A stretch of DNA of 64,000 nt from a plasmid: the sequence record NZ_CP016173.1, one strand, 5' to 3'. The position numbers and the translations under genes are program-made. Below are positions 16,926 to 37,111 of the stretch, in pieces. Position 1 is the stretch's first letter, and every line of letters begins with the position of its first letter. The notes under the pieces are model-generated. The model did no database searches. It had not been told where the DNA came from and saw only the letters and a program-made list of their open reading frames with translations.

Positions 16926-18596
16926 TTAGATGCTGGGGCTCGGGCGGGCCATCCGCTCATCGTCCACGATGCCGGCGTCCTCCGGCAGCACGTCAGACAT
17001 GCCCAAGGGCATCAGCACGTCATCATCGTCCTCATCGGACGCTGTCGTCAGCGCCTTGGCTGCGGGGCTTGCGTCCACAAGACGCTGAACAAACGCCGCG
17101 TCGATCACCGCGCCGGCATTGTCCTGACCGTACAGCACCTGGTGCAATGCCTGCTGTGTCTTCTGCGCGTCCCAACGGGCGTTCACGCTTTCGACCAGTA
17201 CCTTCTGATAGCGGCTGTTGATCTCCTGCAACGCCGACTCCACGACCTCGACCTCGATTCCGTTCGCCGATGTCCGCACCTTGCCGGCGAACTCCTCCCA
17301 CTTTTGGTGGTGCACGTCGGCTTGCTTCATCTCGTCAATGATCTGGGCGCCGATCATCTGGTAGACCATATCCTCATCTACGCCCTTGGTTTTCATCCCA
17401 TCCATGATCGTCGTGAAGTTCGGTTCGATCATGTCGAACACGGGGGCAATCGCCTCCGCGTTCAGCCCAGCTTTCTTGGCGGTTTCCAGCAGCGCTTTCT
17501 CGAATCCAGCCCAACGTGGATCGGCGCGCCCAGTTCGCACGACTGGCGCGGCCGGTTCAACGCCTGCAGGAATGAAATTGGGCAGTTCATCGCCGATCGG
17601 CAGCCGACGCTTTGAGCGATTTTCCGGCAGCATATTTGCTGCCAGTGCCCCGTCCACAATCTCACGCAACTCCGGGGCGTAGCCAAAAATGTGATCCACG
17701 ATCAGCTCCGCGTCGCGCGCGGCACGGAAGATCTCGTGCTGATCACCCTTGAGCATCTCGCGCCACACACCGGCATACCTGCCGCCGTCGTCTTGTTTGC
17801 CTTGGATGCCAAGCATCGATGTCAGGAAAACCGTGGCAATATGAGCCCGCAGCTCTTCGCGCGCATGCGCCGCATCCCCGACAATATGCGGTAGGACTGG
17901 GGCTTTTCGATCCAAGCGCGACGCATGGCCGGTCCAGCGTGCCAGCATGCCTATCACCGTAGCGTAATAGTCGTCCTGGCTCTTAAAGGCGTTGCGTGGA
18001 GGTACTAAGATTTTGTCTGGCTCACGCGTGTAGTACGCGCCATTCACGACTACGTACGATCCGATCTGACTGGAGCTTTCATGCTCTATGTCGGCACCAG
18101 TGGCCCTGATCAGCTTTTCAGCCACCTCATGTGCCTGCCAGGTTCGCTCGCGCACAATCTCCGGCAGACCCAACACGTCGGCGCCGTTGAAGAGGGCGGC
18201 ATAGAATGGACGGGGCTTGGTGCGAGCACGGGCCTGCTCTTCCGTTTCATCGTCTTCTGCTGAGGCATCTTTGTCATCGGCCTTGTTCAGCTTGAGCCAG
18301 GGCACGCCCCAGTCCCAGTATTCGACATAGGCTGCTTTCGCGCCTGCGCGGATGCGGTACCCGGCTTCATTGGCCTGCTTAAGCGTCATCCAGCGAGGAT
18401 CCGAAGATCCGCGCCGCAACTGCTCCAGCAGCAAGCCCACATTGTTGCCACCTTTATATTTGACGCCAGACACGGGATTGAACGGGCGCGAAACCACATT
18501 GTTCCGCACCTGTGCCCAAGGAAGTCCATCGTGCTCTTCCAGCCCCTGAATGAGCCCCTTCGTCAGCCGTTGCCGAAAACTGTCACGGGTCGCCAT
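16926..18596 (-). CDS. ardC: ArdC-like antirestriction protein (N-terminal ArdC_N ssDNA-binding domain, extended C-terminus)
   Basis: 556 aa. The N-terminus (…LPWAQVRNNVVSRPFNPVSGVKYKGGNNVGLLLEQL…DPRWMTLKQANEAGYRIRAGAKAAYVEYW) matches the ArdC/TraC1 N-terminal domain. No HExxH motif is visible in the C-terminal part. Acidic tail. Confidence 0.75.
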   Translation of the reverse strand: MATRDSFRQRLTKGLIQGLEEHDGLPWAQVRNNVVSRPFNPVSGVKYKGGNNVGLLLEQLRRGSSDPRWMTLKQANEAGYRIRAGAKAAYVEYWDWGVPWLKLNKADDKDASAEDDETEEQARARTKPRPFYAALFNGADVLGLPEIVRERTWQAHEVAEKLIRATGADIEHESSSQIGSYVVVNGAYYTREPDKILVPPRNAFKSQDDYYATVIGMLARWTGHASRLDRKAPVLPHIVGDAAHAREELRAHIATVFLTSMLGIQGKQDDGGRYAGVWREMLKGDQHEIFRAARDAELIVDHIFGYAPELREIVDGALAANMLPENRSKRRLPIGDELPNFIPAGVEPAAPVVRTGRADPRWAGFEKALLETAKKAGLNAEAIAPVFDMIEPNFTTIMDGMKTKGVDEDMVYQMIGAQIIDEMKQADVHHQKWEEFAGKVRTSANGIEVEVVESALQEINSRYQKVLVESVNARWDAQKTQQALHQVLYGQDNAGAVIDAAFVQRLVDASPAAKALTTASDEDDDDVLMPLGMSDVLPEDAGIVDDERMARPSPSI

Positions 18597-18597
18597 G

Positions 18598-18744
18598 TCA
18601 CTCTTCCTCTTCTTCCACGATGCCGATCCCGTTGTATACGGGGTTGCTCAGGATCTCCTGAGGCATGTCCGCTTCGCACATCTCGGCGGGCAGCCGCTCG
18701 CCCGTTTCCATCACTGCCTGGACGTATTCGTCACTGTATTGCAT
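18598..18744 (-). CDS. small acidic hypothetical protein (48 aa)
   Basis: ORF 18598..18780 trimmed to the Met with a GAGGTG RBS (MQYSDEYVQAVMETGERLP…EEEEE). Confidence 0.35.
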   Translation of the reverse strand: MQYSDEYVQAVMETGERLPAEMCEADMPQEILSNPVYNGIGIVEEEEE

Positions 18745-18982
18745 GACACACCTCAAAATGCTCAATGGTTTCGATTGCAATCAGATGGTCTTTCCCATCG
18801 GCACTCATCACATGGATGAATGGCTCCTTGGGCATGCCGACAGCGCCAACGAGCTCGATCCCCAGGAACGTCCGCATCTTCGTCTCACCAAGAATCAGAT
18901 CGCCCAATGGCGAGCGCCAATCGCGGATTTTGAATTCATAGGCCTGGTTGGGCACCAGGTGTACCGCCTCGCTTAGTTCCAT
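18731..18982 (-). CDS. hypothetical protein (83 aa)
   Basis: Compact ORF between topB and ardC on the same strand. Confidence 0.45.
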   Translation of the reverse strand: MELSEAVHLVPNQAYEFKIRDWRSPLGDLILGETKMRTFLGIELVGAVGMPKEPFIHVMSADGKDHLIAIETIEHFEVCHAIQ

Positions 18983-18998
18983 ATCAGCGTCGGCCCAC

Positions 18999-21458
18999 TC
19001 AACGCGGCTCGAAAACGAATTCGACCTTGCTGTTGTCGGCCGTCAATCGCAGGCCAGCAGAGAATGGTCGTTTCGTCTTGCTGCTGATAAAGCCGTGAAC
19101 CGCACCCAAACTGCCATTGGTGAGGAGTTCACGAGCCTCGTCATCGGACAAGTCCCGGCCCGCGACCTTGCGCCACAGTTTGAAATCGCCGTTTTCGCAC
19201 ACGAACTGAGGATGCTCACCCCACTTCACGTGTACGACACTGCCACAGTTCGGGCACGGCGCTCCAATCGAATTGCCCAGCGGCACCGGCTCGCGTTCCG
19301 CGAACTCGAACTCAACCTTACTTTCGGCGCCAAGCTTCAGACCAGCTGAAAACTTCCGATTCGTCTTGCTGCTCACGAAGCCATCAAGCGGCTTGATGGA
19401 CCCGTTCTGCAACAGTTCCTGCGCTTCCGCGTCGCTGAGATCGCGCTTGGCGATCTCGCGCCACATCTTCCAACCACATGCCGCCGCACACTCGAAGGTG
19501 CGAACCTTTGCCTGGACACCAGGGTTTCCGCACTTCGGGCACGGCACGGCCAGTTGCGCGACGGGCGCGACGGGCATATCTGAAGCTTTGCGCCGGATCA
19601 CGTCGATCATGTCGCGCGTCATCGCGGCGATTTCGTCCATGAAGGCACGACGGCTGTATTGCCCCTTCTCCATCAGCCGAAGCTTTTGCTCCCATTCCCC
19701 TGTCATCTTGGGCGAGGTCAACGAGCCCACGCCATTGGTCTCCAGGAAGGTCACCAGGCCCATGCCCTTCTCGGTAGGCACCAGGTGCTGTTCCTTGCCC
19801 TCGCGGCGCAAGTAGGGTTCTTTTGCACGCCCCTGGCCGTCCTGGTCCGACAGCAGCCCTTCGATCGTCGCGGCACGCGTTGCCGGCGTGCCTAGCCCAC
19901 GCTCGCTCATGGCGTGGCGCAGCTCGTCTTCATCCACGAGTTTGCCGGCGCCTTCCATAGCGGCCAGGAGCGTAGCTTCGGTGAAGCGTGCGGCAGGCTT
20001 GGTCTGCAACCCCTTTGCCTCCACGCCTCGCGTCTGCACGGGCTCACCCGGCTGTACGGCGCAAAGTGCCGGCGTTCTGTCGTCGTCTCCCTGGCCACCG
20101 TAAACCACACGCCAACCCGGATCCACAAGCACCTTGCCGGTGGACTTGAACGTCTCACCGGCCACCACGGATATCCGAGTGGTCAGGCTGTACTGTGCTG
20201 CCGGGTGAAACACGGCGATGAACCGCCGTACCACCAGGTCGTAAATCTTGGCTTCATCCGGATCCAGCCCGCTGGGCGCGGTTTCGGTCGGGATGATGGC
20301 AAAGTGGTCGGAAATCTTGCTGTTGTCGAAAATCCGCTTGTCTGCGCGCACCCATCCGCTGTCCAATACACGCTTGGCGTGTTCGCCAAACGCTGCACGC
20401 GAACCCAAGCTTCCGAGCACCTGCTTTGCCGTGTCGATATAGTCCTCGGGCAGCGCCGTCGCATCCGTTCGCGGATAAGTCGTGGCCTTGTGTTTTTCGT
20501 ACAACGCCTGTGCAATATCAAGGGTACGCTTGGCAGAGAACTTGAACCGCTTGTTCGCTTCCCGCTGCAACGTGGTCAGATCGAACAATCGGGGCGCAGC
20601 GTTCGAAGTGGTCTTGGACTCATCGGTAACCGAGCTGGGCGCCACGCCATCGCACATCGCGACGATCGCCAAGGCTTGGCCCTTATCGAAGATGCGGGCA
20701 CCCGCCGCATCAGGGTCTTCACCCTCGCCTGCCTTTTCCCCCTGTCGCATCCATCGGCCCGAATAGGTTCCGGCCTGTGCAGCGAAGGTCGCATGCACCT
20801 CCCAGTAATCCTTCGGCACGAAATTGCGGATCTCACTTTCACGATGAACCACAATTGCCAGCGTGGGAGTCTGGACCCGCCCTGCCGTCATTTGCTCATA
20901 GGCGCCTTTCTGCCGCTCGCGCAGGCGCGTGATGCCACGCGAGCCGTTGATGCCGACCAGCCAGTCCGCCTCGCTGCGACATTTCGCGGCGTCGGCCAGC
21001 GCATTGAACTCGTCCCCCGGCCGCATGCCTTCATAGGCCTGGCGGATCGCGTCCGCCGTCATGGATTGCAACCACATGCGTCGGATTGGCTTTTTGCAGC
21101 CAGCCGCCTCGTAGATCAGCCGAAAGATGAGCTCACCCTCGCGGCCCGCGTCGCAAGCGTTCACGACTTGCGTCACGTCTTCTCGCTTCATGAGCCGTGC
21201 GAGCAAATTGAATTGGGGCTTGGCGCGGTCCAGGACTTGAAGGCCGAAGCGCGGCGGAATTACCGGCAGCGTGTCGAGGTCTTTCCCTGTGGTCTGCGCT
21301 TCAGGCACATGCAGAGTTACCAGATGCCCAACGGCAGAAGACACCAGCGCGTCGCCGCGTTCGAGCCAGCCGCCCTCGGCCTTTGAGAAACCGCCCAGGG
21401 CCTGCGCAATATCGCGGGCGACCGACGGCTTTTCCGCGATGACAAGTATCTTCGACAT
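18999..21458 (-). CDS. topB: DNA topoisomerase III (type IA) with C-terminal zinc ribbons
   Basis: ORF 18999..21584 trimmed to MSKILVIAEKPSVARDIA… with an AAGGGG RBS. Toprim motifs (EKPS, DAGREGE). Active site …ALYEKHKATTYPRTDATALPE…. C-terminal Cys4 repeats (CPKCG…C…C, CPNCGS…). Confidence 0.9.
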   Translation of the reverse strand: MSKILVIAEKPSVARDIAQALGGFSKAEGGWLERGDALVSSAVGHLVTLHVPEAQTTGKDLDTLPVIPPRFGLQVLDRAKPQFNLLARLMKREDVTQVVNACDAGREGELIFRLIYEAAGCKKPIRRMWLQSMTADAIRQAYEGMRPGDEFNALADAAKCRSEADWLVGINGSRGITRLRERQKGAYEQMTAGRVQTPTLAIVVHRESEIRNFVPKDYWEVHATFAAQAGTYSGRWMRQGEKAGEGEDPDAAGARIFDKGQALAIVAMCDGVAPSSVTDESKTTSNAAPRLFDLTTLQREANKRFKFSAKRTLDIAQALYEKHKATTYPRTDATALPEDYIDTAKQVLGSLGSRAAFGEHAKRVLDSGWVRADKRIFDNSKISDHFAIIPTETAPSGLDPDEAKIYDLVVRRFIAVFHPAAQYSLTTRISVVAGETFKSTGKVLVDPGWRVVYGGQGDDDRTPALCAVQPGEPVQTRGVEAKGLQTKPAARFTEATLLAAMEGAGKLVDEDELRHAMSERGLGTPATRAATIEGLLSDQDGQGRAKEPYLRREGKEQHLVPTEKGMGLVTFLETNGVGSLTSPKMTGEWEQKLRLMEKGQYSRRAFMDEIAAMTRDMIDVIRRKASDMPVAPVAQLAVPCPKCGNPGVQAKVRTFECAAACGWKMWREIAKRDLSDAEAQELLQNGSIKPLDGFVSSKTNRKFSAGLKLGAESKVEFEFAEREPVPLGNSIGAPCPNCGSVVHVKWGEHPQFVCENGDFKLWRKVAGRDLSDDEARELLTNGSLGAVHGFISSKTKRPFSAGLRLTADNSKVEFVFEPR

Positions 21459-21468
21459 GCCGCGCCCC

Positions 21469-21903
21469 TTACTGCTGGACGCTGTACTGCGCAGCGCGCG
21501 CGTGAATCCTGAGTGCCGCTGCTTCCTGTGCTTGTGCCGCCCGTACGGCCTGCCCATAGAGCGCGTCACCGGACATAGATTCATCGCTGTTCCGCGCCAT
21601 TTCCCACAGCACGCGCATCACGAAAAGCGCATTACCTTCCGGGTCCAGGCCTTGATCGCGCAGATGGTCGATCACACCCTGGGCCGTATCCTGCAGACCG
21701 CTCGCCTGGAGAAAATCGGCGATGGATCCCAGACCTTTCGGATTCTGACTGGGGTGAATCACGATTGGCGTGATGCGATCCGCGTCGAGCATGTCCCAGT
21801 ACGTCGAGCCGTCGCGCCCGACGCAGACGACCTTTCGGCCACCGGCCAGGTCGTCCATTTCAAGGTAAGTACCCGGCTGAAACTTCATCGTTTTCATTGT
21901 CAA
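21469..21903 (-). CDS. hypothetical protein (144 aa)
   Basis: Sits between the two topoisomerase genes. Its start region overlaps the 3' end of the upstream ORF by ~40 nt, so the start is uncertain. Confidence 0.5.
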   Translation of the reverse strand: MTMKTMKFQPGTYLEMDDLAGGRKVVCVGRDGSTYWDMLDADRITPIVIHPSQNPKGLGSIADFLQASGLQDTAQGVIDHLRDQGLDPEGNALFVMRVLWEMARNSDESMSGDALYGQAVRAAQAQEAAALRIHARAAQYSVQQ

Positions 21904-23389
21904 AATCCTGATGTCGGTCGGTAGAAATGGTGCTCAAACCACACATTTCTATCATATCAGCAACCATCATAGATGAGTCTTTTTTATTGACTTCGAGGTA
22001 ATTCTCGATCAATTTTGACAAATTTTGATGTCCGAAATGCCGCCCAACATTGGCGCTCCATTCCATGCCTTTCTTAGTCAAATCAAAGGATTGTGTGACA
22101 AGTTCGCGTGTCAGAAATTTGTTCACGTGATCGACCATCGTAGATGGTCGACCCAACCCGTTCTTGCTCATGAAATGCAGCAGCGACTGGGCCGGAGTCC
22201 ACGCCTGGAATCCCGGCGAGATCGGCTCGTTCCACAAGATCGACCCCTTTGCATCCCGTCGATGCCAAGCCAGGCCTTGCGCGGAAGAAGGCAACGTCGA
22301 AGTCTGCGCGGCATTTGGCATTTGCAGCTCACACGGCACGCCGCATTCGATCAAGCGCCTTGTCAGGTGTACAAGCACCCGCTCCTCAAAAGGCAGCAAG
22401 GAAAGCTCACGGTTCAACGCCAAACCGATGACCATGGGGTTAGGGGCTTCATGCGCATACTCGCCTCCAGGTTCACGCACAGCCGTAAAGAGGCCAGGCA
22501 CGAATCCGGCGCCGCTTGCGCGCGCGATCGCGGTAATTCGCCGCACCGCCTCGGGCGTAATCGCACAGTCCCTGGCCCTCGGGTAGGTCATCTGCCCACG
22601 CTCGTAGAGGTCTTGCATAGCGCTTGAGACCTCGGACACCTCACGCCCCGTCGCCAGGCTTGCGGACAACAAAATTTCATCGTGGTTCATCGGACGGCTC
22701 GCCATGGTGCCCTGTTTCACTGAACCCACGGACAGCCGCGCATCAAAGTGCGTGACATCAGGCACCGCCTCACCAGCGAAAATGGGTCTTCTGGCGATCC
22801 AATCCCCTTTCCCATCATCACTTGATGCTGCAAAAGTGACGATGCCCACGACCGGCACCTTCGATTGCAGCTCAAGCAGCAATGAACCCTGCACCCGCCC
22901 GACTGCCCCCTCTTCCCCCGACAGCGACCCGATAAGGCGATCCACAATGCGCCTGGCGTCACCACGGCAAGCCGTCATTTCATCGAATGGCCCGGCCGCA
23001 GCCAATGCAGCCTTCACTTCTGACGGGGCCAGCGATTTCAGCCGCACGCGCAACACCTTTGACCGATCCTTATCAGCGATGCAAAAGCGAAGCACGTCAC
23101 GGGCGATCACGTCCCCCTCTTGGTCGTCATCAGAGGCGAGATACACGTGCTTGGCTGACCTGGCCGCTTGCTCGATCTCCAAAGCGACACACTCGCGGTC
23201 GGGCTTCAGTCGATAGGCCAACTCGCGATACCTATCATCGATACCTATCGGCTTGAAGCCATCGGGATTGGTGCCGATATGCCCCACTGTAGCCAATACG
23301 CTGACATCCCGCATTCCGGCCGCGCGCAGCGCCGCAATCAACGCCTTGCGCTTTCCAGGCGCTTCAATCACAAAGACATTGGCAGGCAT
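21860..23389 (-). CDS. compact type IA topoisomerase-like protein (Toprim + catalytic core, no zinc ribbons)
   Basis: 509 aa. AAGGGA RBS. VFVIEAPGKRKAL (Toprim Glu). YLASDDDQEGD (DxD). GRVQGSLLLEL corresponds to TopB GRVQTP. LYERGQMTYPRARDCAITPEA retains the catalytic Tyr of the TYPRTD motif. AHEAPNP and GLGRPSTMVDHVNKF match the topo IA C-terminal core motifs. Confidence 0.7.
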   Translation of the reverse strand: MPANVFVIEAPGKRKALIAALRAAGMRDVSVLATVGHIGTNPDGFKPIGIDDRYRELAYRLKPDRECVALEIEQAARSAKHVYLASDDDQEGDVIARDVLRFCIADKDRSKVLRVRLKSLAPSEVKAALAAAGPFDEMTACRGDARRIVDRLIGSLSGEEGAVGRVQGSLLLELQSKVPVVGIVTFAASSDDGKGDWIARRPIFAGEAVPDVTHFDARLSVGSVKQGTMASRPMNHDEILLSASLATGREVSEVSSAMQDLYERGQMTYPRARDCAITPEAVRRITAIARASGAGFVPGLFTAVREPGGEYAHEAPNPMVIGLALNRELSLLPFEERVLVHLTRRLIECGVPCELQMPNAAQTSTLPSSAQGLAWHRRDAKGSILWNEPISPGFQAWTPAQSLLHFMSKNGLGRPSTMVDHVNKFLTRELVTQSFDLTKKGMEWSANVGRHFGHQNLSKLIENYLEVNKKDSSMMVADMIEMCGLSTISTDRHQDFDNENDEVSAGYLP

Positions 23390-23397
23390 AGATTCCC

Positions 23398-25092
23398 TTA
23401 CATGCTTAGGGTCGGACGCGACTCATCGGACAGCACGTCGTTCTGTTGGGCCTGGACGGCGCGCCCTATTTCGATGGCGCCGATGACCAGGCCGTTTTCG
23501 TCTTCCACTCCTCTCTCACCAGCCAGCGCTGCCCGTGCCACCAAAGCAGCTACCTCCGATGCTGATCTTCCAGGAGAAAGCCGGATGGAGATCCGCACAT
23601 CATCGTCTGCCACAGCTTGCTCCGGCTCTGCAAAAGAAATGGAACCGACCGTGTTTCCGTTGATGTCGCATACGTCAACCTCCTCCCCTGGCGTGCGGTC
23701 CATCTGCTCAGCAACCGCACGAACGATATTGGCAAGCTCATTGCGCATGCCCACGTCCATGAAAGCCGCGGTATCGGGGCGAATCGTGATCACCGCGACG
23801 GAAGGCGCAACCTCGACCTCGGCGTCCAGCCAACGATCGACCTTCAGGTGCGAGACCTCGGTAACCGCAACCCCTTTGTATTCGCCATGCTTTTTCACCT
23901 TGAAGCGTGCCGCAAAGGTGCGGTCCACAGCTTGAGGCTTGAGCAGATCGTCGGGCGGACTGGAGGTGCGCCATGACAGCCGATTTCCGTTTGAATCCCG
24001 GAAATTTAAACGCCATTGCAACCCGTACTGGGTATCCCAGCTCGTCACAGAGTGGAACGTGAGCGGTTCATCACGCTTCTGGCCAACCTCACCGACATGA
24101 ACCGATGGAATCTCGGCGTCACGTTCCTTGGCGTGCTGCCGCTGGTGCCCTGCTACCGCGCCCGCCGCAAAGGCCAGATACTTGCTCTTGAGCTCTATGT
24201 TTTCGTTTGAGAACAGGGTCTTTACGTTGCTCGTGAATGAGTCGTCGTTCTCCGATTTCAGCCACCAAGCAATGATCTTATCGGCGTATTGGGCGTGACG
24301 CTCGTAGTCCTGATAGAAGCGATCGCGACGCCTTGCATCCCGTTGAAGCTCTCGATCAAGCCCAGCGGCACGTTCATACGTGGCGAGCACGAAAGCCTCT
24401 TTGGCCTTGGCAGCCGACACAAAGCCCTTATCTACTTCCATGCAGAAGAGAACACGAGCAAGATAACCTTTGACCGGCATCGCGGTCACGCGCCCGGTGT
24501 CGGCGCTGAACGATTCTTCACCGTAGTCGCTCCAGAACGCATGCATCTGCTGCGTGAAAAGCGCAATGCTCGGATCGACTCCGGCGAAATCTTCCAGGCA
24601 GGTAGAGCCAACTTCTTTGTAATTGCCTTGTCGATCTTTGAGCAAGTAACTGAGCTTCCTGGCACGCTTCGTGTTGCAGTGCTCGCAATTGATTGCGCAG
24701 TTAGCATGTGAGCGCATCACTTCCACGTCATCGGGATCGGTAGAGACGGAGAACAACAAGTTGCCCGCTTCTGTCGCCTCGATCTGACCCACAACGGACC
24801 AGTCGCCCAACTTGACAATCGGGTAGTCCAACGAAAGGCGATTGACCAGGAATACCGCGCGTCCGAAGGGCGGCTCATCTCCCTCCATGAGCCGGACAAT
24901 ATATGCCTCGGTACCCGCGCTCGTATCCTGCGTCTTCCAGTAGTAGCGTTGCTGGCTTGTTGCGACCACCTTTATGGGGTCGAGCCCAAAGGCCTCCGCC
25001 TTCTTGTTCAACCGTGCAAGCGAAGACTCGAAATCGTCCATCCCGTGAAGGGGAACAAGGACATCGCTTTGAAGACGCGTAGCCATAGTCAC
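23398..25092 (-). CDS. uncharacterised protein with Cys4 motif and one C-terminal 'DINGN' repeat domain (564 aa)
   Basis: CAINCEHCN…STCLEDF cysteines. C-terminal …RPDTAAFMDVGMRNELANIVRAVAEQ…DVCDINGNTVGSISF… matches the repeat found twice in the 733-aa protein. ATGA overlap with the upstream gene. Confidence 0.7.
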   Translation of the reverse strand: MTMATRLQSDVLVPLHGMDDFESSLARLNKKAEAFGLDPIKVVATSQQRYYWKTQDTSAGTEAYIVRLMEGDEPPFGRAVFLVNRLSLDYPIVKLGDWSVVGQIEATEAGNLLFSVSTDPDDVEVMRSHANCAINCEHCNTKRARKLSYLLKDRQGNYKEVGSTCLEDFAGVDPSIALFTQQMHAFWSDYGEESFSADTGRVTAMPVKGYLARVLFCMEVDKGFVSAAKAKEAFVLATYERAAGLDRELQRDARRRDRFYQDYERHAQYADKIIAWWLKSENDDSFTSNVKTLFSNENIELKSKYLAFAAGAVAGHQRQHAKERDAEIPSVHVGEVGQKRDEPLTFHSVTSWDTQYGLQWRLNFRDSNGNRLSWRTSSPPDDLLKPQAVDRTFAARFKVKKHGEYKGVAVTEVSHLKVDRWLDAEVEVAPSVAVITIRPDTAAFMDVGMRNELANIVRAVAEQMDRTPGEEVDVCDINGNTVGSISFAEPEQAVADDDVRISIRLSPGRSASEVAALVARAALAGERGVEDENGLVIGAIEIGRAVQAQQNDVLSDESRPTLSM

Positions 25093-25922: not shown

Positions 25923-25929
25923 ACGTCAC

Positions 25930-26886: not shown

Positions 26887-26924
26887 GTTGTTTCCTCTCG
26901 GCTTCCGGCAAGGATGATGGTTAA

Positions 26925-29126: not shown

Positions 29127-29130
29127 CGCG

Positions 29131-29553
29131 TCACTGCATCACAGATGCCGACGTGCCGCCCAGATAGCTGGCATATAGCCGGAGCACATCATCCAGGCGC
29201 CGCAAGCTGCTTTCGTCCACCTTCGCGTCGAAGTTGTAGTCCATATCGGCTTCTGACACCACATTGAGCAACACTTCCTCGTCATCGAGCACCACCGTCG
29301 CGTAGAGGACGTTGCGCGCTTCATCCCCTTCGCGCTGGAGCAGCCCGAACTCGATGACGTTATCTCGATGGCTCAGGGTCGCCGAGAGACTGGACTCATC
29401 CGGCGAACGGCGGACCACCCATTGACGTCCGAACTCCCGCACACCGTCGGGGCGCACGATCACCTCTTCGTCTTTCTCCTCGCCTGGTCCAGGCAGCGAG
29501 CTCATAAACGACAGGACGTGCTCCCGCACCATCCGGCAGGTTGCTGCGGTCAT
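29131..29553 (-). CDS. hypothetical acidic protein (140 aa)
   Basis: ORF 29131..29571 trimmed to the Met that overlaps the upstream stop (ATGA). Confidence 0.5.
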   Translation of the reverse strand: MTAATCRMVREHVLSFMSSLPGPGEEKDEEVIVRPDGVREFGRQWVVRRSPDESSLSATLSHRDNVIEFGLLQREGDEARNVLYATVVLDDEEVLLNVVSEADMDYNFDAKVDESSLRRLDDVLRLYASYLGGTSASVMQ

Positions 29554-30104
29554 GTTGATGCTCCTTCGCAAAAAAGGCGCGACCCGTCAAAGACGAGTGC
29601 CGCGCCCGATTGATGTTCCAGTTTGGCGATCGCAACATCCAACGGATGCCCTTCAAGCCATGATGATCGCTGGTGATAAAGCCGCACGAAAGCGGCCAAC
29701 CCGTCCAGGGTGTCGAACTGTTGCGCCCGCGACGCTCCCAAGCTCACCAGCTCGATAGGTAGGCCAAGGTCGAACAGGTAACGCACCGTCTGCTGCGGCG
29801 CGCGCGCTTGTATTTCAGCGTGAGTTTCCCCAAGTACTGTGGGCTGCATTTCAGCGGTCACCACAAGGAGGCGACTCGTATCCGCGCACATTGATCGCGC
29901 GAAAGTCCCGGCCACAAGGTGCCCGCCTGCGCAGGCAAAGGCTCGTGTACGGCACAAGGCCTTCCCCAGCCCTGCCGCCTCGTACTCGGGCAAGGCAAGC
30001 TCAACGATTGGGGTGCCAGGCAGCGTGGGCAAGTTTTGGCCAGGCGGAATCCAGGCCGACATCGCCTTCGCGCTTAGTTGTGGGCCAAGCAGATCCGTTC
30101 CCAT
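29550..30104 (-). CDS. hypothetical protein (184 aa)
   Basis: Co-directional ORF. Weak RBS, so the start is uncertain (alternative at 30062). Confidence 0.45.
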   Translation of the reverse strand: MGTDLLGPQLSAKAMSAWIPPGQNLPTLPGTPIVELALPEYEAAGLGKALCRTRAFACAGGHLVAGTFARSMCADTSRLLVVTAEMQPTVLGETHAEIQARAPQQTVRYLFDLGLPIELVSLGASRAQQFDTLDGLAAFVRLYHQRSSWLEGHPLDVAIAKLEHQSGAALVFDGSRLFCEGAST

Positions 30105-30210
30105 GAGCCACCATTTCTTAGCATGGCCGCATGTTAACTCACATGGACATCAAAAAACAATTTTTTTGACGGGTCAGATTGACACACTACCGACGAGGCC
30201 CCGCCGTTTT

Positions 30211-30366
30211 TTAGAATAGCAGCGGGCCAGCAACCCACACCAAGGCATAAAGCGCACCCCCACCACAATATATGTGCTGGGGGTCTCCCTCCGGCTCAGC
30301 GCTCACTGCGAACAGCACGGCAAGCAGCGACGTGCCCACGCCAAAGAGCGCGGCTGGCAGATTCAT
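30211..30366 (-). CDS. small membrane peptide (52 aa)
   Basis: ORF 30211..30492 trimmed to MNLPAALFGVGTSLLAVLFAV…ALYALVWVAGPLLF with an AAGGA RBS. Two hydrophobic helices. Confidence 0.3.
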   Translation of the reverse strand: MNLPAALFGVGTSLLAVLFAVSAEPEGDPQHIYCGGGALYALVWVAGPLLF

Positions 30367-30421
30367 GTTCATCCTTGATTCGACGGTGGGTGGCCCCGCA
30401 TAACGTCCGCTTGTCCGGACG

Positions 30422-31168
30422 CTATGGTTCAAACTCCTGACGCTCAGCAGGAGCGATATCCCACACGTCATCGAGCACGGCTGTCGATGCAAGCGTTTCC
30501 TCGGCGTTCATGACGTGGGTCTGCGGCGCCCGATCAATCGCCTCTACTGTGCGCCATAGCTGTTTTCCCAGAGCTGCGGAAACGCTATCCTGGCCCGCTG
30601 AGCCGATGGCTCTCACACCAGCGCTGATGAGCGTCTCCGCGCGGCAACCCGCTTCGACGCCAAGTGCGGCCTCTACGGTTTCTATCGTCCGCGATGCACG
30701 CGCAAGCACCGCGTAGGTGTGCCCGGCCAGCCAACCCACATCTGGCGTATGCCCCACTTGGACCGATTGCTCTAGATGCTGCGCAACATCGCGTAGATAG
30801 GTTTCGTAATCCACGATGGCGCCATTAAGGAACACGGCGGCCGCACCGGCATAGCCTCGCACGCCAGTGGTTTCGTCACCCTCTTCCTTCAGGCGAGCAT
30901 AAAGCTCCAGAACGGCCGCTATAACTGCACTGCGCTTGCGCGAGCTGCGCTCTTCCGGATCCTCGCTATCCCCGTTTGCCGCCGTGAATGCCTCTGCGAG
31001 CCTATCGCGGCATTCGGCGAGCACCCGCATCACATAGCCGTCCTGAGCAAAGAGCAATACATCCCGATCAAACGCCCCGCTACGTTCCGCGTCCTGCAGG
31101 TCCGCGATCACAAGCTCCTTTAGGAAGGGCTGGTAAACGGGGGTAGGACATTTGCGATCCGGTTCCAT
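30422..31168 (-). CDS. hypothetical protein (248 aa)
   Basis: GAAGGTAGAGGGG RBS region. No motif recognised. Confidence 0.55.
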   Translation of the reverse strand: MEPDRKCPTPVYQPFLKELVIADLQDAERSGAFDRDVLLFAQDGYVMRVLAECRDRLAEAFTAANGDSEDPEERSSRKRSAVIAAVLELYARLKEEGDETTGVRGYAGAAAVFLNGAIVDYETYLRDVAQHLEQSVQVGHTPDVGWLAGHTYAVLARASRTIETVEAALGVEAGCRAETLISAGVRAIGSAGQDSVSAALGKQLWRTVEAIDRAPQTHVMNAEETLASTAVLDDVWDIAPAERQEFEP

Positions 31169-31175
31169 GTCCCCT

Positions 31176-31667
31176 CTACCTTCCCAGGCTAAGGCCCCCG
31201 GTGCCCATCACGGCGCGACGGTTGTCCATCGCCCCTGCCGGGATCGCCGGCACATCATCGCGCGCGGGCCGCTCCATGCTCTCGGGCAGGACGTAACCCA
31301 TCTGCTCGACTGCCAGCGCATATACCCGCACCAGGTCGTGCCGCAGGTGGAAGATGACGCCTTCAAACACATCGGTGACGTAAGGCGCAACCTCGGAAAA
31401 AGCTCGGGGCTTCACCGGAATCGCATGCACCGGAAATACCGGATTCGGTGCGCCGAGCTCAAACTCATAACCGCAGCCACCCATGCCAAGACGGCGCGAC
31501 AGCGAATCTGCCATGACCAAGGCACAAGGCAAGGCGATTTCGGCTACATCACTGGCGAAAAGCCGCCCACCGTCATAAATGAAATTTGCCCCAGCTTTGA
31601 TTTTTTGGTCAGCCAAGCCCGTCATCAGCGCTGTCAGTTGCGCGCCCAATCCTACGTGTGAATCCAT
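31176..31667 (-). CDS. hypothetical protein (~163 aa)
   Basis: ORF 31176..31676 starts with GTG. The ATG at 31667 is preferred. Confidence 0.5.
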   Translation of the reverse strand: MDSHVGLGAQLTALMTGLADQKIKAGANFIYDGGRLFASDVAEIALPCALVMADSLSRRLGMGGCGYEFELGAPNPVFPVHAIPVKPRAFSEVAPYVTDVFEGVIFHLRHDLVRVYALAVEQMGYVLPESMERPARDDVPAIPAGAMDNRRAVMGTGGLSLGR

Positions 31668-31681
31668 AATCCTCACCAGTT

Positions 31682-32590
31682 TCAGCGTCTCTTCTGAGAC
31701 TCGACAATGAGCTCCGACATCTCGGATACTCGTTCAAGCGTCCTCGAATGGGCCTCGATAACATGGTCATACGACATGCCACCAAGGCGCTCGTACTGCG
31801 CGATCATGATGGACCGATCCACCGGCGCCATCGACCGCAGGCGCATTACGTCCCGCGCGGCGTGGTGCTTGTAGACTTCACACATCAGCCCGACGCTCAC
31901 ACCGTAAAGACGTTGGAGCACAGACTGCCTGGTGAACTCGATCGCGTCGGAGGGAGTCAGCATGTTTGCGTGCTTCTCCGCTTCGGCCACCACAGCCAGC
32001 AACAAACGATTTACCAGGGCCTCATGGTCGGCTTGGTAGTAGTCAAAGAGATTGACCAGCCCATAGACCTTCGGCAAAGCCTCCATCGCGCATAGCTTGC
32101 GCGCGCGCTCAAGATCAGGCGCCTCGGGGTATCCGACCATCACCCCGATGGCCTGATGGTTCACGACCTGCTCGAAAAGCCGCAGTAGCACCGGTTTGGA
32201 TAGCGAACGGCTCTTGCCAGGAGCAAGTTGGGCCCACTTCCATTCCTCTGTCACAACATCCAACGCAATGTTGGTCAAAGCGTTGAAGGCGGGCGCAAAG
32301 TCGCTGCTATCGGAACGGACACCAAGCAAGCCGAGCCCAGCCTCGCGAATGGAGGCGACACGATCCATTATGGAATCCAAACTGCGCAGCAGATCGGCAT
32401 CGATCACGTCACCGCTCATCGCCGTGGCCATGCCCACGACGCGCGACGCGAGTTTGATTCCGGCGCACCGGCGCCGCGTCTCGGCCGCAGCGATCCGACG
32501 AACCTCGTCGTCATCGACCTGGACGATTGTGCTGTCATCGTCCAGCGTCTGATCAAGGCCATACAGCGCCTGGGGATCAAAGTTGGTCAC
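31682..32590 (-). CDS. hypothetical protein (302 aa), N-terminus (V/M)TNFDP…
   Basis: GTG start with a GGTGGAG RBS. The N-terminal TNFDPQAL resembles the SNFDPSKL N-terminus of the 62318..63622 gene. Confidence 0.55.
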   Translation of the reverse strand: MTNFDPQALYGLDQTLDDDSTIVQVDDDEVRRIAAAETRRRCAGIKLASRVVGMATAMSGDVIDADLLRSLDSIMDRVASIREAGLGLLGVRSDSSDFAPAFNALTNIALDVVTEEWKWAQLAPGKSRSLSKPVLLRLFEQVVNHQAIGVMVGYPEAPDLERARKLCAMEALPKVYGLVNLFDYYQADHEALVNRLLLAVVAEAEKHANMLTPSDAIEFTRQSVLQRLYGVSVGLMCEVYKHHAARDVMRLRSMAPVDRSIMIAQYERLGGMSYDHVIEAHSRTLERVSEMSELIVESQKRR

Positions 32591-32734
32591 AACAACTCCA
32601 CCACTGAATCAAAACGTATCATTTGATACTTTATATGAATTTATCAGTTCTTTTCTGTTTATCGGCTTACGGAAGGCCTTCTTAAATTTGTCTGCTTTCC
32701 AAGACAAAGCGCCCATATTCCCCGAACTTGGCCC

Positions 32735-33538
32735 TTACTGAGACAATTTGGCCCACATCATCACTCCAACGCACGTTACAAAAAAAATCACAAGTATGTT
32801 GAATTGATACCGCATCCATAGCTGCCGACATGCCCAGCGCAGCGGCCTGGCCCGAGCAGCCTCAATTTCGGCCACCAAGTCGCGACGGACGCGCTCCAGG
32901 CGATTGTTGCTATACGACAGGTCTTTTATCTGCGCGCAGCCGTGCCGGAGATACTCCACTAAGCCCCATTCCTCAATGTTCTCGCCCCATACCTCCGGGG
33001 CAACGGGGGTCAGCTGCGCAGCGACCATCGTGGAGAGCGATACCCCAGATCGACGGTCTGGGGTGTATTCGAAGACGATGCCGAATTGCTCATATAAGCG
33101 GTTCCTCCGCTCACGATTCTCGTCGGACCCATCCACAGTCGATAGCGAAATCTGGCGCACTTGCGCTGTCGGCCATTGCTTGGCCCAGCGCACCACCTCG
33201 TCAAGCAGGTATGTGCCGATGTGAGCGCCACGGGGAATCCCCTCGCCATTGACCATCACGCTGCCGCCCGTGATGCTTACTCTTCCTGACCCGTCGGGAG
33301 ACCAATCCCATCTCCCCATAAAACGGTGGTTGTTGAATCCCCCGCGCGCCCCATCAAGCGCCACATAGGAAAGCGTAATCGCCGCGTGATGCTCGCTGCG
33401 GGACTCTTCGCGGTACACCAGCAAACGACATTGAATGCGGCTTGGCTCCTTTCGATCCCTTACCACCAGCACTCTCGCCGACGGTGGCATTTCATCGCTG
33501 GATCGGCCACGCCAGTTTTTCCAGAACAGGAGCGACAT
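32735..33538 (-). CDS. GNAT-like acetyltransferase-fold protein with C-terminal TM helix (267 aa)
   Basis: ORF trimmed to MSLLFWKNWRG…. Motif …NGEGIPRGAHIGTYLLDEVVRWAKQ…NRLYEQFGIVFEY resembles GNAT motif A (R/QxxGxG/A) and motif B. C-terminal hydrophobic tail FNILVIFFVTCVGVMMWA. Confidence 0.45.
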   Translation of the reverse strand: MSLLFWKNWRGRSSDEMPPSARVLVVRDRKEPSRIQCRLLVYREESRSEHHAAITLSYVALDGARGGFNNHRFMGRWDWSPDGSGRVSITGGSVMVNGEGIPRGAHIGTYLLDEVVRWAKQWPTAQVRQISLSTVDGSDENRERRNRLYEQFGIVFEYTPDRRSGVSLSTMVAAQLTPVAPEVWGENIEEWGLVEYLRHGCAQIKDLSYSNNRLERVRRDLVAEIEAARARPLRWACRQLWMRYQFNILVIFFVTCVGVMMWAKLSQ

Positions 33539-33548
33539 GCCCGCGCCC

Positions 33549-34736
33549 TCAAATGAATTGACCGTAGGAGCCGAGCACGTATTCGGCTTGCCGATCCACG
33601 CAGATCCAGCGACGCCCCAACCTTTCGGCGGCAAGTCCTACCTTGCACCGACCGGCCAGGCAATCGACAACCAGTTGGCCCCTCTCCGTCAAAAACTCGA
33701 TGAGAAACTGAGCCAGGCGCACGGGCATCGATGCGCCATGAGTGGCCAGGCCATGCTCCGCGCAATACCGGCGATACGCGGCGTCACGATCGTCTGCACA
33801 GCGCGCAAATTCAAGGACATTCTTCGGAATTCTTCCTTCGGTTTGCCTGGAATACGCCCCCACGCGCTTTCTATAGGCGCCGTCGGAATGCACCGCGCCT
33901 GCCTTTATCCCGCCCGCCCGCACGAAGCGGGAGTGCTGCTCGCTATGCGGCTCCAAAACCCTCCGGTTGTCCGCGAGAACGCGGTCCGGATCGTTGGTAA
34001 GCCAGTACACGGGCTCATATGCCGTATTGAGCTGCACGCGCTTCTTGCTCGCCCATGCGACCGGGCCAGGTGGCTTGGGAGAAGTCCAAATGATCTCGTC
34101 CATCTTGTACAAGCCCAGGCGAGCGTGCAACGCCAGTATCAACCGTTCCCGATACAGCGAACGTGCCGGCGACCTCTGCATGAAAACGTCATTGCCGACG
34201 TTCAAGCAAATGGATCCGCCTTGCACCAGGTTGCGCACGACAGGCTCAAGAACCTTGCACAGCCAATCGACATAGCGCGATTCGGGCACATTGCCATAGG
34301 CGCGTGGCTGTGCAAGTGGATATGGCGGCGATGTCACGATCAAGTGGATGGGCTCCGAGATCTTCGTGAAGAAATGCTCGCACGATGAAATAACAGCGAT
34401 ACCCAGCTCCGTCGAAAAGCCGAGGATAGCGGCGCCATCGGCAATCAACGGCAGTCCGCTTCCGTCAATGCCCTTTCCTGTCAATTGCCACAAACCACGC
34501 TGGCCTGCAGGTTCAATTACCCCGGCATGCTTTAACGTCTGCTGATACCACCGCACGCGGCGTTTCAAGAGACTCACGGGGGACTGCGCCTGGCCCACAG
34601 GCCGCCGCTCCTCAAAAGCCTCGCTACTGATACCTGTTGCCCTCGCCACAGCGTCGTAAAGACGCTCCTGGCTCACGGGTTCACCGGCCTGCACGTAAGT
34701 CTCAGCCACCGCCGCGAAGAGATTCAAATCCTTCAC
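33549..34736 (-). CDS. orphan DNA methyltransferase, beta-class (N6-adenine/N4-cytosine; motif IV before motif I) with ~130-aa N-terminal extension
   Basis: IVTSPPYP (motif IV, S/DPPY/F) upstream of C-terminal VVDCLAGRCKVGLAAERLGRRWICVD (FxGxG-like motif I). No restriction endonuclease nearby. GTG start with an AAGGGG RBS. Confidence 0.8.
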   Translation of the reverse strand: MKDLNLFAAVAETYVQAGEPVSQERLYDAVARATGISSEAFEERRPVGQAQSPVSLLKRRVRWYQQTLKHAGVIEPAGQRGLWQLTGKGIDGSGLPLIADGAAILGFSTELGIAVISSCEHFFTKISEPIHLIVTSPPYPLAQPRAYGNVPESRYVDWLCKVLEPVVRNLVQGGSICLNVGNDVFMQRSPARSLYRERLILALHARLGLYKMDEIIWTSPKPPGPVAWASKKRVQLNTAYEPVYWLTNDPDRVLADNRRVLEPHSEQHSRFVRAGGIKAGAVHSDGAYRKRVGAYSRQTEGRIPKNVLEFARCADDRDAAYRRYCAEHGLATHGASMPVRLAQFLIEFLTERGQLVVDCLAGRCKVGLAAERLGRRWICVDRQAEYVLGSYGQFI

Positions 34737-34787
34737 TCTAGCCCCTTAATCAAAGAAGGTATTCTGAAAATAAGGTTGATGGATGTT

Positions 34788-35105
34788 CTAGCGGCGGTCC
34801 CGCAGCCACCACTCCCGCCCAGGTGCCCATTCCTTTTCTGGAACAGGCGGGGCGTCTATGCGTTGATATTGCTGACGCCCCATCCACTCGTAGTCGTCGC
34901 AGGTTTCGAGAAAAACGAACTTCCCTTCTGAATGAAGAAACGCAGGCATCTTCGGTGCTGGGTCTTCCCGGAACGGACCGCTCACGATGGCGATATTGTC
35001 CACTTCGCTGGCTTCCGAATTTGCCGCGATGCAGATTGGTGTATCAGGGCTTACGCCCGACTTCAGCAGCGCATCAAGATAGTCACGCAATTGTTGGACG
35101 TTCAT
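34788..35105 (-). CDS. hypothetical protein (105 aa)
   Basis: ATG with a GGAAG RBS. Confidence 0.5.
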   Translation of the reverse strand: MNVQQLRDYLDALLKSGVSPDTPICIAANSEASEVDNIAIVSGPFREDPAPKMPAFLHSEGKFVFLETCDDYEWMGRQQYQRIDAPPVPEKEWAPGREWWLRDRR

Positions 35106-35219
35106 TTTTAAGCTTCCATGAAAGAACTACGCCTTTTACAAGCGGCTTTTTTTGTATACCGTCCATAGAATGCGGCACGCCGCGCACTCGCTGGCGTTTC
35201 ATATCCGGGCACCCGCCCA

Positions 35220-35423
35220 TCAGATCCCGGCGTCTCGCAGGGCAACGCACTGCTTCGTCGTAAGGGATTCTTCCGCGACCGTTTCGAGACCTTCGTAGAC
35301 CATCACGGCCCAGATGTCGGCAAGGAGGCCAACCACCGGGCCCACCGAAACGCCATCGCCAGGGCCTTCACGCTCGCCCCAATACGCCAATGCGAGCTGA
35401 ATCTGATTCAGCGTGTACTGCAT
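35220..35423 (-). CDS. small hypothetical protein (67 aa)
   Basis: ORF 35220..35456 trimmed to MQYTLNQIQLALAYWGEREG…. Confidence 0.35.
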   Translation of the reverse strand: MQYTLNQIQLALAYWGEREGPGDGVSVGPVVGLLADIWAVMVYEGLETVAEESLTTKQCVALRDAGI

Positions 35424-36067
35424 GCGTCCTCCCGCAGAAACGCTGCTACACCGCACTTGTCAAAACCGTGCTTTGCCTCCCACTGGCGCGCTGCCGATTC
35501 CAGCACACCATGCTTGTCGACTTGGCTCAAGGTTCCACCCCAATCGCGGATGGCATCGATAGTCCTCCCGATAGCGAAAGCGCCTTTCGCCGCACCATCG
35601 GCCCTGGCGTCCCCGTACTCCTGAATGCACGCGATGATGTGCTCCGGTACGCGAGGCCGTTTGTCGTCCTGGGCAACGGGATTCGGCTCTATCTGGCGTT
35701 GTTGCAACAAGCGGGCCTCATGAGGCCCGCCGTCGCCGGTCCCCTCCATCGGATCGACACCGATCACTTCGACATCACGTTTGTCAGAAGCTTCCATCAC
35801 AAGAGGACGGAGTTGCCGAATCGACTTCAGGCGCAGCCGCTGCGCCCCGTCCTCCACGGAGCTATACGCGGCGCCGATAGCACCGCTCATTAAGTGAAGG
35901 AGATCCGCCTTGGCGACAACGTACTCCTCGCTTTTCGGCATAACCACGCCGGCAATGATCTCTGTGAAGGCCTCATGCGCCCTCACTGCATTGGCTGTGT
36001 CGCCCTTGAAGTGCCGAGCGATGATAGTGCTCGCGTAAGCAAGCAGTTCCTGGGGACTATTCGCCAT
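35408..36067 (-). CDS. hypothetical protein (219 aa)
   Basis: ORF 35408..36169 trimmed to MANSPQELLAYASTIIARHF…, starting 10 nt downstream of the ParB-like stop. Confidence 0.5.
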   Translation of the reverse strand: MANSPQELLAYASTIIARHFKGDTANAVRAHEAFTEIIAGVVMPKSEEYVVAKADLLHLMSGAIGAAYSSVEDGAQRLRLKSIRQLRPLVMEASDKRDVEVIGVDPMEGTGDGGPHEARLLQQRQIEPNPVAQDDKRPRVPEHIIACIQEYGDARADGAAKGAFAIGRTIDAIRDWGGTLSQVDKHGVLESAARQWEAKHGFDKCGVAAFLREDACSTR

Positions 36068-37025
36068 TGTCCACCCCCAGTTCTTGCTGCGACGCCGCTT
36101 GGGCGCTATCGCGCTTACGAGAAGCAATCTTCGCTTCGGCCTCTTTGATCTCGGCGGTCGCACGAACAAGGTTCAGCAACGTCAGGGCATCAACCTCGAT
36201 CCGCTCACCCTTCAGGTCTTCAGGATTTTTCTTCTCCATAGCTGCCAGGCGACGGCGCGTCGCGCTGTCGAAGCTCTCAACTGCGCCGCGCAGGGCGGTC
36301 ACCACAGACCCGACCACTTTCGGGGGCAGCGTGGGCCCGCGCATCGTGCTCCGCGTTACCTTGGCCTTCCCTTGCGCAACCGCTTTCTCGTACTCCCCTC
36401 GCAAGAATGCGCCTGCCTTCTCCCGGTACTTGCGCACAGCTTCGATAGCCACGTCGGCAGTCACGACCCCATCGCGTACCAGCTGATGCACATCCGGCTC
36501 GGCCGTCGCCAACAGCAGCATCTGCTCGACGCGGGCGGGCGTGACGAGCTGCTTCCTGGCGATATCGACGTTCGAGTGCCCGTTCCGGTGGAGACGCAAG
36601 TACCCCTCAGCAATCTTCAACGGCTTGAACTTCAGGCCATCGTTGCTCTTGAGCATCATATGGACCCGATCGGACTCGTTCCCACGGAAGGGCACGGTAT
36701 CAACGAAAGGCAGCTCTGCACCCCGTTCGATGGCCAACAGGGCACCGCGCCGACGGCAATGCCCCTCGACAACAAGGATGCGCCCGTCGCCGTCCGTGCG
36801 AACAATCCAGGGCGGTACGAAGTTACCCGCCATATAGGACTGCGCGAATCCCTCGATATGGGCGATCACCTCGGGATCGTCATAGTCCCTCAGATTGAAT
36901 CCCTCTTCCTCTTCCACCAAACGGGGATCGATGCGGTAGAGGTCGTTCTTCTTGACGCCAGGGATATTGGTGTCAGCGGCCATGCTTTTCAGGGACCGGG
37001 ACTTTTCAGGTTGAGACGAAGCCAT
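36057..37025 (-). CDS. ParB/Srx-like nuclease-domain protein
   Basis: 322 aa (trimmed to MASSQPEKSRS…). ParB N-terminal domain motif …RILVVEGHCRRRGALLAIERG… (GxRR box). No parA partner is adjacent. First gene of the 20-kb minus-strand block. Confidence 0.75.
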   Translation of the reverse strand: MASSQPEKSRSLKSMAADTNIPGVKKNDLYRIDPRLVEEEEGFNLRDYDDPEVIAHIEGFAQSYMAGNFVPPWIVRTDGDGRILVVEGHCRRRGALLAIERGAELPFVDTVPFRGNESDRVHMMLKSNDGLKFKPLKIAEGYLRLHRNGHSNVDIARKQLVTPARVEQMLLLATAEPDVHQLVRDGVVTADVAIEAVRKYREKAGAFLRGEYEKAVAQGKAKVTRSTMRGPTLPPKVVGSVVTALRGAVESFDSATRRRLAAMEKKNPEDLKGERIEVDALTLLNLVRATAEIKEAEAKIASRKRDSAQAASQQELGVDNGE

Positions 37026-37077
37026 GATCACTCCTTTGTTGGGTCGGGCGAGGTTGCGATATGGACTATAGTACATG

Positions 37078-37111
37078 TTGCACGATCATTTTGCAAGACT
37101 ATAATCCACAT
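37078..37111 (+). promoter_or_regulatory. strong sigma70-like promoter candidate: TTGCAC-16-TATAAT followed by CCACAT
   Basis: -35 TTGCAC (37078..37083), a 16-nt spacer, and -10 TATAAT (37100..37105). It sits ~90 nt upstream of the 37198 gene and lies in the divergent region shared with the ParB-like gene. Confidence 0.5.

Follow-up and report, generated by a model that had tools for sequence, protein, structure and literature searches.

A candidate repressor-controlled establishment and DNA-processing operon in the conserved backbone of a Bordetella flabilis plasmid with Dot/Icm relatives

We analysed a 64,000-nucleotide (nt) stretch of plasmid sequence record NZ_CP016173.1 (hereafter the window) and, within it, a gene block at 16926–37025 that reads from 37 kb down to 16.9 kb. 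The block begins with a gene for a ParB/KorB-like protein, continues through an orphan DNA methyltransferase (MTase) gene and a series of genes without family matches, and ends with two type IA topoisomerase genes and an ArdC-like gene. Every homologue-supported open reading frame (ORF) within 16926–37076 lies on the minus strand; compared with relatives, the plus-strand ORFs within the block are only weaker antisense shadows. An earlier note on this DNA had described a strictly co-directional array of about 25 genes; the single orientation was borne out, but refinement of ORF starts against homologues left 21 minus-strand ORFs in 16926–37025, which together make 96.8% of the block coding. The close coupling of genes described there was equally evident, with overlaps or gaps of at most 16 nt at 14 of the 20 junctions and three gaps longer than 100 nt (302, 144 and 106 nt). 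Scanning of the minus strand revealed no promoter-like site in the block interior, terminator-like sites within the block were no more frequent than in shuffled sequence, and a repeat scan of the block gave nothing beyond chance level.

Two copies of a 14-bp palindrome, TGGACTATAGTCCA, flank a promoter 5′ of the block. In this region (37062–37108, minus strand), TGGACTATAGT at 37062–37072 and TGGATTATAGT at 37098–37108 lie around the hexamer pair TTGCAA–17 nt–TACTAT. When the DNA upstream of the ParB-like gene is compared between B. flabilis, a Thauera-type contig, Xanthomonas and Pseudomonas, nothing aligns but a pair of GGAYTATAGT copies spaced by about 35 bp, and this pair brackets the −35 hexamer (TTGCAA, TTGCGT, TTGACA or TTGACC) and overlaps the −10. 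For the 11-mer TGGAYTATAGT, 0.00 copies are expected in the window and three are present: two are those at 37062–37108, and the third, at 13269–13279, is not part of the block but belongs to the promoter region of a plus-strand operon (13568–16900), with a counterpart in the related loci L006 and L010. That operon, convergent with the ArdC-like gene, has a DUF6283 gene among its members and ends in an H-NS-like gene (16143–16478, plus strand) that is homologous to the Histone_HNS gene of L006 and L010. In relatives the motif also stands 5′ of a HerA/DUF5710 gene and of a KfrA-like gene. All told, its sites in the related loci are at L001, positions 11384 and 11872; L004, 7777, 8126, 8160 and 40536; L006, 21110; and L010, 684, 717 and 21298. 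The palindrome is thus common to backbone promoters of Bordetella, Thauera-type, Pseudomonas and Xanthomonas plasmids, and it was absent from the unrelated plasmid loci that we searched. Judged from these motifs, the promoter of the block appears to be of the ordinary double-strand, sigma-70 type and to have repressor-like operators, and the palindrome looks like the operator of a plasmid-wide repressor. Because the same palindrome marks other backbone promoters, the block probably belongs to the regulon of such a repressor. The ParB/KorB-like product of its first gene is the most obvious candidate for this repressor and would then be an autoregulator.

Syntenic relatives place the block in a plasmid backbone. 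A search for near-identical DNA among plasmids and phages returned no match for the block, and scans of genome contigs for relatives gave no locus with a first query and four with a second. The whole block, including the MTase gene and its GNAT-like neighbour, is syntenic on contigs of about 116–122 kb from a Castellaniella sp., a Thauera metagenome-assembled genome and metagenomes, and a homologue of the GNAT-like gene was also found on a 120-kb Achromobacter insolitus contig. The host replicon itself is a B. flabilis plasmid of about 119 kb; three block proteins are 100% identical to B. flabilis proteins, one of which is labelled "(plasmid)". The entire 64-kb window is collinear with the 111.6-kb Pseudomonas savastanoi plasmid NZ_CP032457.1 (loci L001–L003) and with Xanthomonas euvesicatoria p3191.2. 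The P. savastanoi plasmid encodes DotA, B, C, D, G, H, I, L and O, IcmW and RepA, with DotL as the coupling protein. These data support the view that the element is a conjugation-type plasmid whose syntenic relatives carry a type IVB secretion system of the Dot/Icm kind (T4BSS), and the block core is retained in the Dot/Icm plasmids of both P. savastanoi and X. euvesicatoria. Common to Betaproteobacteria, Pseudomonas and Xanthomonas are the genes for the ParB-like protein, the TopB-like topoisomerase and the ArdC-like protein, the genes that we number g6, g7, g11, g15 and g17, and the C-terminal third of g12. A 60-amino-acid (aa) ORF is nearly core, being undetected in Xanthomonas; g8, g10 and g16 are missing from P. 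savastanoi only; g13 and g14 are mosaics that have a 71-aa module in common; the MTase and GNAT-like pair is confined to the betaproteobacterial lineage; and g2 and g3 are unique to the B. flabilis plasmid. In one relative, a 5′–3′ exonuclease gene is inserted after g7.

The first gene (36057–37025, minus strand, as are all block genes below) encodes a protein that matches phrog_1033 (E = 1.8e-60) and, weakly, TIGR00180 (5.5e-4), and a VVEGHCRRRGA motif is visible in its sequence. Its counterparts in relatives are 49–68% identical and have an FtsK_gamma domain as well, and it is 34% identical to the product of a gene annotated as ParB in an IncA/C-type backbone. The earlier note had assigned it a ParB-like nuclease domain. 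The ParB-like part of that assignment rests on phrog_1033 and the weak TIGR00180 match, but the nuclease label is unverified because no Pfam family, ParBc included, matched at E ≤ 0.01. No ParA gene adjoins the ParB-like gene, and the palindromes upstream of it lie at promoters.

Directly after the ParB-like gene lies the one lineage-specific accessory slot of the block, occupied here by g2, g3, the MTase gene and the GNAT-like gene and in Xanthomonas by about 12 other small genes. The orphans g2 (219 aa, 35408–36067) and g3 (105 aa, 34788–35105, preceded by the 302-nt gap) have no family match; g2 is in none of the relatives examined, and g3 is likewise absent from relatives. The predicted N6/N4 DNA MTase (33549–34736) combines an N-terminal Mrr_N winged helix with an N6_N4_Mtase domain (Pfam, E = 1.8e-26) and matches PADLOC MTase_II (1.6e-47). 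PADLOC found no partner nuclease and hence no complete type II restriction–modification system, in keeping with the orphan status first proposed for it. It is restricted to betaproteobacterial relatives (77–81% identity), and its constant neighbour is the GNAT-like gene (32735–33538). The product of the latter falls below the threshold for Acetyltransf_1 (E = 0.12), and a profile search against the PDB gave nothing; for its homologue P0046, which matches the window protein at E = 2.7e-29, the score of 23.7 bits exceeds the Pfam Acetyltransf_1 cut-off of 20.7. Homologues are named GNAT in their source annotations, and a RGxHIGTYL...NRFYEQFGI motif region is invariant among them. The GNAT assignment of the earlier note therefore rests on a homologue and not on the window protein's own score. 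A hydrophobic C-terminal segment of this protein looks like a transmembrane helix.

No significant match in Pfam, NCBIfam or PADLOC was found for the interior genes (23398–32590), consistent with their original description as lacking recognisable function. They had also been singled out as the best candidates for undescribed anti-defence or establishment proteins. Comparison with the syntenic relatives gave this no support: most of the interior genes are core there and therefore conserved backbone rather than fast-turnover cargo. Two of them, g6 (302 aa, 31682–32590; 42–73% identity over the full length) and g7 (166 aa, 31176–31676; 49–67% identity), are present in all family members and have no family match; g11 (140 aa, 29131–29553; 47–64% identity) is likewise present in all members. 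Betaproteobacterial and Xanthomonas relatives carry g8 (248 aa, 30422–31168) and g10 (184 aa, 29550–30104; 40–67% identity). The weakest gene call of the block is g9 (30211–30372), a possible small hydrophobic protein of 53 aa for which there is an ORF and no homologue was found. Four products are strongly acidic, with isoelectric points (pI) of about 4.5: g8 (pI 4.6), g11 (pI 4.5), g12 and g13.

Larger, modular proteins follow. The 733-aa, very acidic multidomain product of g12 (26925–29126) matches phrog_9027 twice (7e-16), and its C-terminal third contains two copies of a module of about 60 aa that is also present in g15 (BLASTP; phrog_9027). Five homologues of g12 were found, with conservation outside Betaproteobacteria limited to that C-terminal third; an AlphaFold2 model was poor (mean confidence, pLDDT, 62) and unusable for structure search. 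The mosaics g13 (318 aa, 25930–26886), which has only partial matches in relatives, and g14 (277 aa, 25089–25922) are 58% identical across their common 71-aa module. The product of g15 (564 aa, 23398–25092; phrog_2319) is predicted to contain OB-fold domains, as in the single-stranded DNA (ssDNA)-binding proteins of the SSB/RPA type, and a Cys/His cluster, followed by two small C-terminal modules. Its homologues occur on 53 plasmids and in 91 phages, many of which are jumbo phages, and C136, H138, C139 and C165 are invariant in an alignment of 30 sequences, forming a cluster predicted to be zinc-ribbon-like. This protein is probably an ssDNA binder. PDB sequence searches with g15, g12 and two large proteins from elsewhere in the window (1120 aa and an LPD1 protein) returned nothing usable.

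Both topoisomerase assignments made earlier were confirmed by Pfam Toprim and Topoisom_bac matches, and the Toprim acidic residues and TYPR tyrosine of type IA enzymes are present in each protein. The compact paralogue g16 (509 aa, 21860–23389; Toprim 9e-07, Topoisom_bac 9e-12) has no C-terminal zinc ribbons and is absent from the P. savastanoi plasmid. Five homologues share without variation its Toprim glutamate (E9), acidic SDDDQEGD motif, GRVQ, TYPR tyrosine and LGRPST, and on these residues it is probably catalytically active. The TopB-like enzyme (18999–21458; Topoisom_bac 2e-108, Toprim and two Toprim_Crpt zinc-ribbon repeats) is 53–78% identical in relatives and is always preceded by g17 (142 aa, 21469–21897), a core gene with 50–68% identity across all family members. 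Two small overlapping ORFs follow at 18598–18982: one of 83 aa (18731–18982), with a homologue in one relative, and the very acidic ORF of 60 aa (18598–18780), with homologues in four.

The last gene (16926–18596) encodes a protein for which the ArdC-like label was upheld by Pfam ArdcN (6.6e-21) and by phrog_7245, 'anti-restriction protein' (4e-50). It consists of an ArdC-N ssDNA-binding domain, a zincin-like domain matching MPTase-PolyVal (5.4e-28) and a long acidic tail. The order of a type IA topoisomerase gene and then an ArdC-N gene is a described conserved neighbourhood (PMC6222260). In the window protein GMLAR replaces HELAH, so that HExxH is lost, although the EE of the glutamate helix is retained. 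L006, L010 and P. savastanoi have likewise lost the motif, and HELAH is retained in L008 and Xanthomonas. In R388 ArdC the HExxH histidines bind metal, but an E229A mutant still supports transfer into Pseudomonas putida, and the protein acts in the recipient against HsdRMS without need of the protease (PMC7213743). The window protein may thus have a protective role of the ArdC kind even though it lacks this family feature.

On balance, and by a little, we favour the interpretation that the block is one tightly coupled, repressor-controlled establishment and DNA-processing operon of a conserved Dot/Icm (T4BSS) plasmid backbone. Because OB folds are predicted, topoisomerases are present and a 5′–3′ exonuclease gene is inserted in one relative, we infer that the block products serve in the handling and protection of plasmid DNA. 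On entry of the plasmid into a cell free of the repressor, the operon would be transiently derepressed. Its products could then coat ssDNA or gapped DNA and pre-methylate it, separate newly replicated plasmid molecules joined as single-strand catenanes or hemicatenanes, and weaken restriction. An ArdC-like protein and an N6_N4 MTase represent the anti-defence and MTase families in the block, and PADLOC found no defence system in the window apart from the MTase. Several points weigh against this interpretation. The promoter hexamers match at only 4/6 and 4/6 positions, below the scan threshold; no canonical SSB, ArdA, KlcA or PsiB is encoded in the window; no function can be assigned to g6, g7, g8, g10, g11, g12 or g17; and the Icm/Dot system of Xanthomonas pXCV183 secretes proteins, with no contribution to plasmid transfer detected (PMC10432156).

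The order in which such a plasmid would enter a recipient depends on its oriT and relaxase. We searched with regular expressions for the 3H and HxH motifs of HUH-type relaxases in 15 large ORFs of the window and in all ORFs of at least 150 aa from the three loci that jointly cover the complete 111.6-kb P. savastanoi plasmid, and found none in either set. NCBIfam and Pfam searches of all large unknown window proteins gave no relaxase, the NCBI annotations of the P. savastanoi and X. euvesicatoria relatives list none, and their MOB-suite type is non-mobilizable. An oriT was recognised neither in the window nor in the complete P. savastanoi plasmid, and literature searches retrieved no description of an oriT or relaxase for this plasmid family. 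The complete P. savastanoi member thus encodes a full Dot/Icm T4BSS with its DotL coupling protein, yet no recognisable relaxase. Type IA topoisomerases cut ssDNA and stay bound to it through a 5′-phosphotyrosine, the same chemistry as that of a relaxase. Conceivably, a type IA topoisomerase of the block, with the universally conserved TopB-like enzyme as the candidate and possibly together with the ParB-like protein, replaces the missing relaxase; we regard this as highly improbable. If it were so, the block would be a transfer (Dtr) module and not cargo.

Two candidates considered in this connection were set aside. The 1120-aa protein encoded at 7381–10743 has no relaxase motif, and Xanthomonas apparently has no gene of that size in the corresponding position, where the distance from a conserved non-coding element to the KfrA-like gene is about 1.4 kb. 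The sequence ATCCTGCCCGG resembles the nick region of RP4 but lies in a terminator-type hairpin (2236–2262), which on the minus strand reads GCATCC–TGCCC–GGATGC followed by T9. P. savastanoi shows no conservation of it, and the likeness is probably due to chance. The conserved element just mentioned (about 80 nt, 5437–5517) lies 5′ of the operon whose last gene is the KfrA-like one. Within it, an inverted repeat, CCCATAAT..TTATGGG, precedes ATGAACCATGTACGTTCATATATGTATTGACA. Conservation of the element extends to plasmids of Pseudomonas, Xanthomonas and Aeromonas; the arms of the repeat are not the same sequence in Bordetella as in P. savastanoi but are complementary in both. It is a candidate regulatory site or oriT. 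In addition, 42 nt of non-coding sequence at 2342–2383 are 88% identical to a divergent intergenic region of P. savastanoi and Pseudomonas syringae plasmids.

Three other interpretations were weighed against the operon model. The earlier note had proposed that the block is a leading region, the first DNA to enter the recipient, expressed early and possibly from ssDNA, with interior genes for undescribed anti-defence proteins. It had pointed out that the bracketing gene types recur in leading regions, and this is correct: ParB-family (K03497), adenine MTase (K07319) and ArdC families are listed as statistically enriched there (Samuel et al. 2024, Supplementary Table 1), and the sector of R388 that contains ardC is assigned by its authors to the leading region (PMC7213743). 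The strict co-orientation, the variable slot with its MTase and GNAT-like genes, and several very acidic proteins also fit, as does the IncA/C-type array, in which the 34%-identical ParB-like gene and then an MTase gene point toward oriT–mobI–topB. The claim is plausible by analogy but, we consider, rather doubtful, given that neither oriT nor relaxase was recognised, that the interior is mostly conserved core and that the canonical ssb of P. savastanoi lies on the opposite strand, in a converging operon. The Frpo-like ssDNA promoter hairpins that the proposal would lead one to expect were not seen: the three largest gaps fold no better than shuffled sequence (z of −0.9 to −1.1), and no Rfam family matched. 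Together with the double-strand-type start of the block and its operators, this evidence favours a repressor-controlled double-strand promoter over ssDNA promoters.

The block might instead serve plasmid maintenance: the ParB-like protein would act in partition or silencing, the topoisomerases would decatenate replication products, and there would be no special role in conjugation or anti-defence. The ParB-family first gene with palindromes alongside, its setting in a conserved backbone and the sharing of the operator with nearby KfrA-like, H-NS-like and HU-like genes would all suit such a role. We nevertheless find it unlikely, as no ParA gene adjoins the block, the P. savastanoi relative has a separate ParM/StbA system, and establishment or anti-restriction functions are where ArdC-like proteins and orphan MTases are typically met. 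A further alternative is that the block proteins are not expressed early in the recipient at all but are T4BSS substrates injected with the DNA, as proposed for polyvalent proteins. MPTase-PolyVal and ArdC-N are polyvalent-protein domains (PMC5512222), an IcmW-like adaptor is encoded in the window beside a 2045-aa Sbno/SNF2 polyvalent protein, together with a 1083-aa LPD1 protein, and g12 to g15 are modular and shuffled. Acidic tails end many block proteins, but such tails are not specific, and R388 ArdC works when expressed in the recipient (PMC7213743); injection of the block proteins thus seems very unlikely.

Several features elsewhere in the window were recorded alongside. In the regions 45115–48366 and 55468–62232, the IcmW-like adaptor gene adjoins the Sbno/SNF2 polyvalent protein gene, and the LPD1 protein, which has a partial CLCA_X match, is encoded downstream; these are possible injected T4BSS substrates. 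Between an M23 peptidase gene and the IcmW-like gene lie three adjoining paralogous unknowns (51346–54450; 396, 382 and 255 aa), with identities of about 30% between the 396- and 382-aa products and 25–28% between the 382- and 255-aa products. Genes for a TctC-family receptor and an NTP_transf_8 nucleotidyltransferase (41363–43658), situated between a HerA-like operon and the LPD1 gene, lack a counterpart on the P. savastanoi plasmid and probably represent cargo. In the minus-strand ORF 12079–12591, 10 codons are doubled by a perfect tandem duplication of 30 nt (12495–12554).

Should entry into a new cell derepress the operon, and should the operon aid establishment, it would offer about ten conserved, uncharacterised proteins with possible roles in ssDNA protection, topology and counter-defence, among them a minimal type IA topoisomerase and a predicted OB-fold, probably ssDNA-binding protein that jumbo phages also encode, in a plasmid lineage that spans Bordetella, Pseudomonas and Xanthomonas. 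The operator common to several promoters provides an experimental handle on the backbone regulon, and the apparent lack of a relaxase in this T4BSS plasmid family is a separate question of interest.

The block resembles the establishment sector of R388 and the islands of Samuel et al. 2024 in being a co-directional array on a conjugation-type plasmid, with an ArdC-family gene, an orphan N6_N4 MTase gene and a ParB-family gene. It differs from those modules in having no Frpo-like element, canonical SSB, ArdA/KlcA or PsiB, and in that its genes are mostly conserved core. Set beside R388/pSa ArdC, the block protein has the ArdC-N domain and matches the MPTase-PolyVal fold but lacks the HExxH motif of gluzincins. 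As in the pairing of a type IA topoisomerase with ArdC-N described for plasmids and conjugative elements (Krishnan et al. 2018, PMC6222260), the ArdC-N gene of the block lies 3′ of a type IA topoisomerase gene with one or two tiny ORFs between them; unlike that pair, the block adds a compact type IA paralogue and the conserved 142-aa gene upstream, and the protease motif of the ArdC-like protein is degenerate in 4 of the 6 plasmid family members compared. The IncA/C array likewise has its ParB-like gene followed by an MTase gene in a long same-strand run of unknowns, with HU, ATPase and topoisomerase III genes nearby. The IncA/C oriT lies immediately upstream of mobI, with the direction of transfer not established there (PMC5587640). 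IncA/C plasmids, unlike the plasmid studied here, use a MOBH relaxase and an F-type type IV secretion system, and gene sharing with them is established for the ParB-like gene only, the MTase and topoisomerase being merely present in both. In the kil-kor regulon of IncP-1 (RK2) plasmids, the ParB-family protein KorB is a global repressor. Although the block operator is unrelated to OB and no KorA, IncC or ParA partner was seen, the block is like this established system in that a palindromic operator recurs at several backbone promoters, including that of a kfrA-like operon, and in that a ParB-family gene stands directly behind the operator pair.

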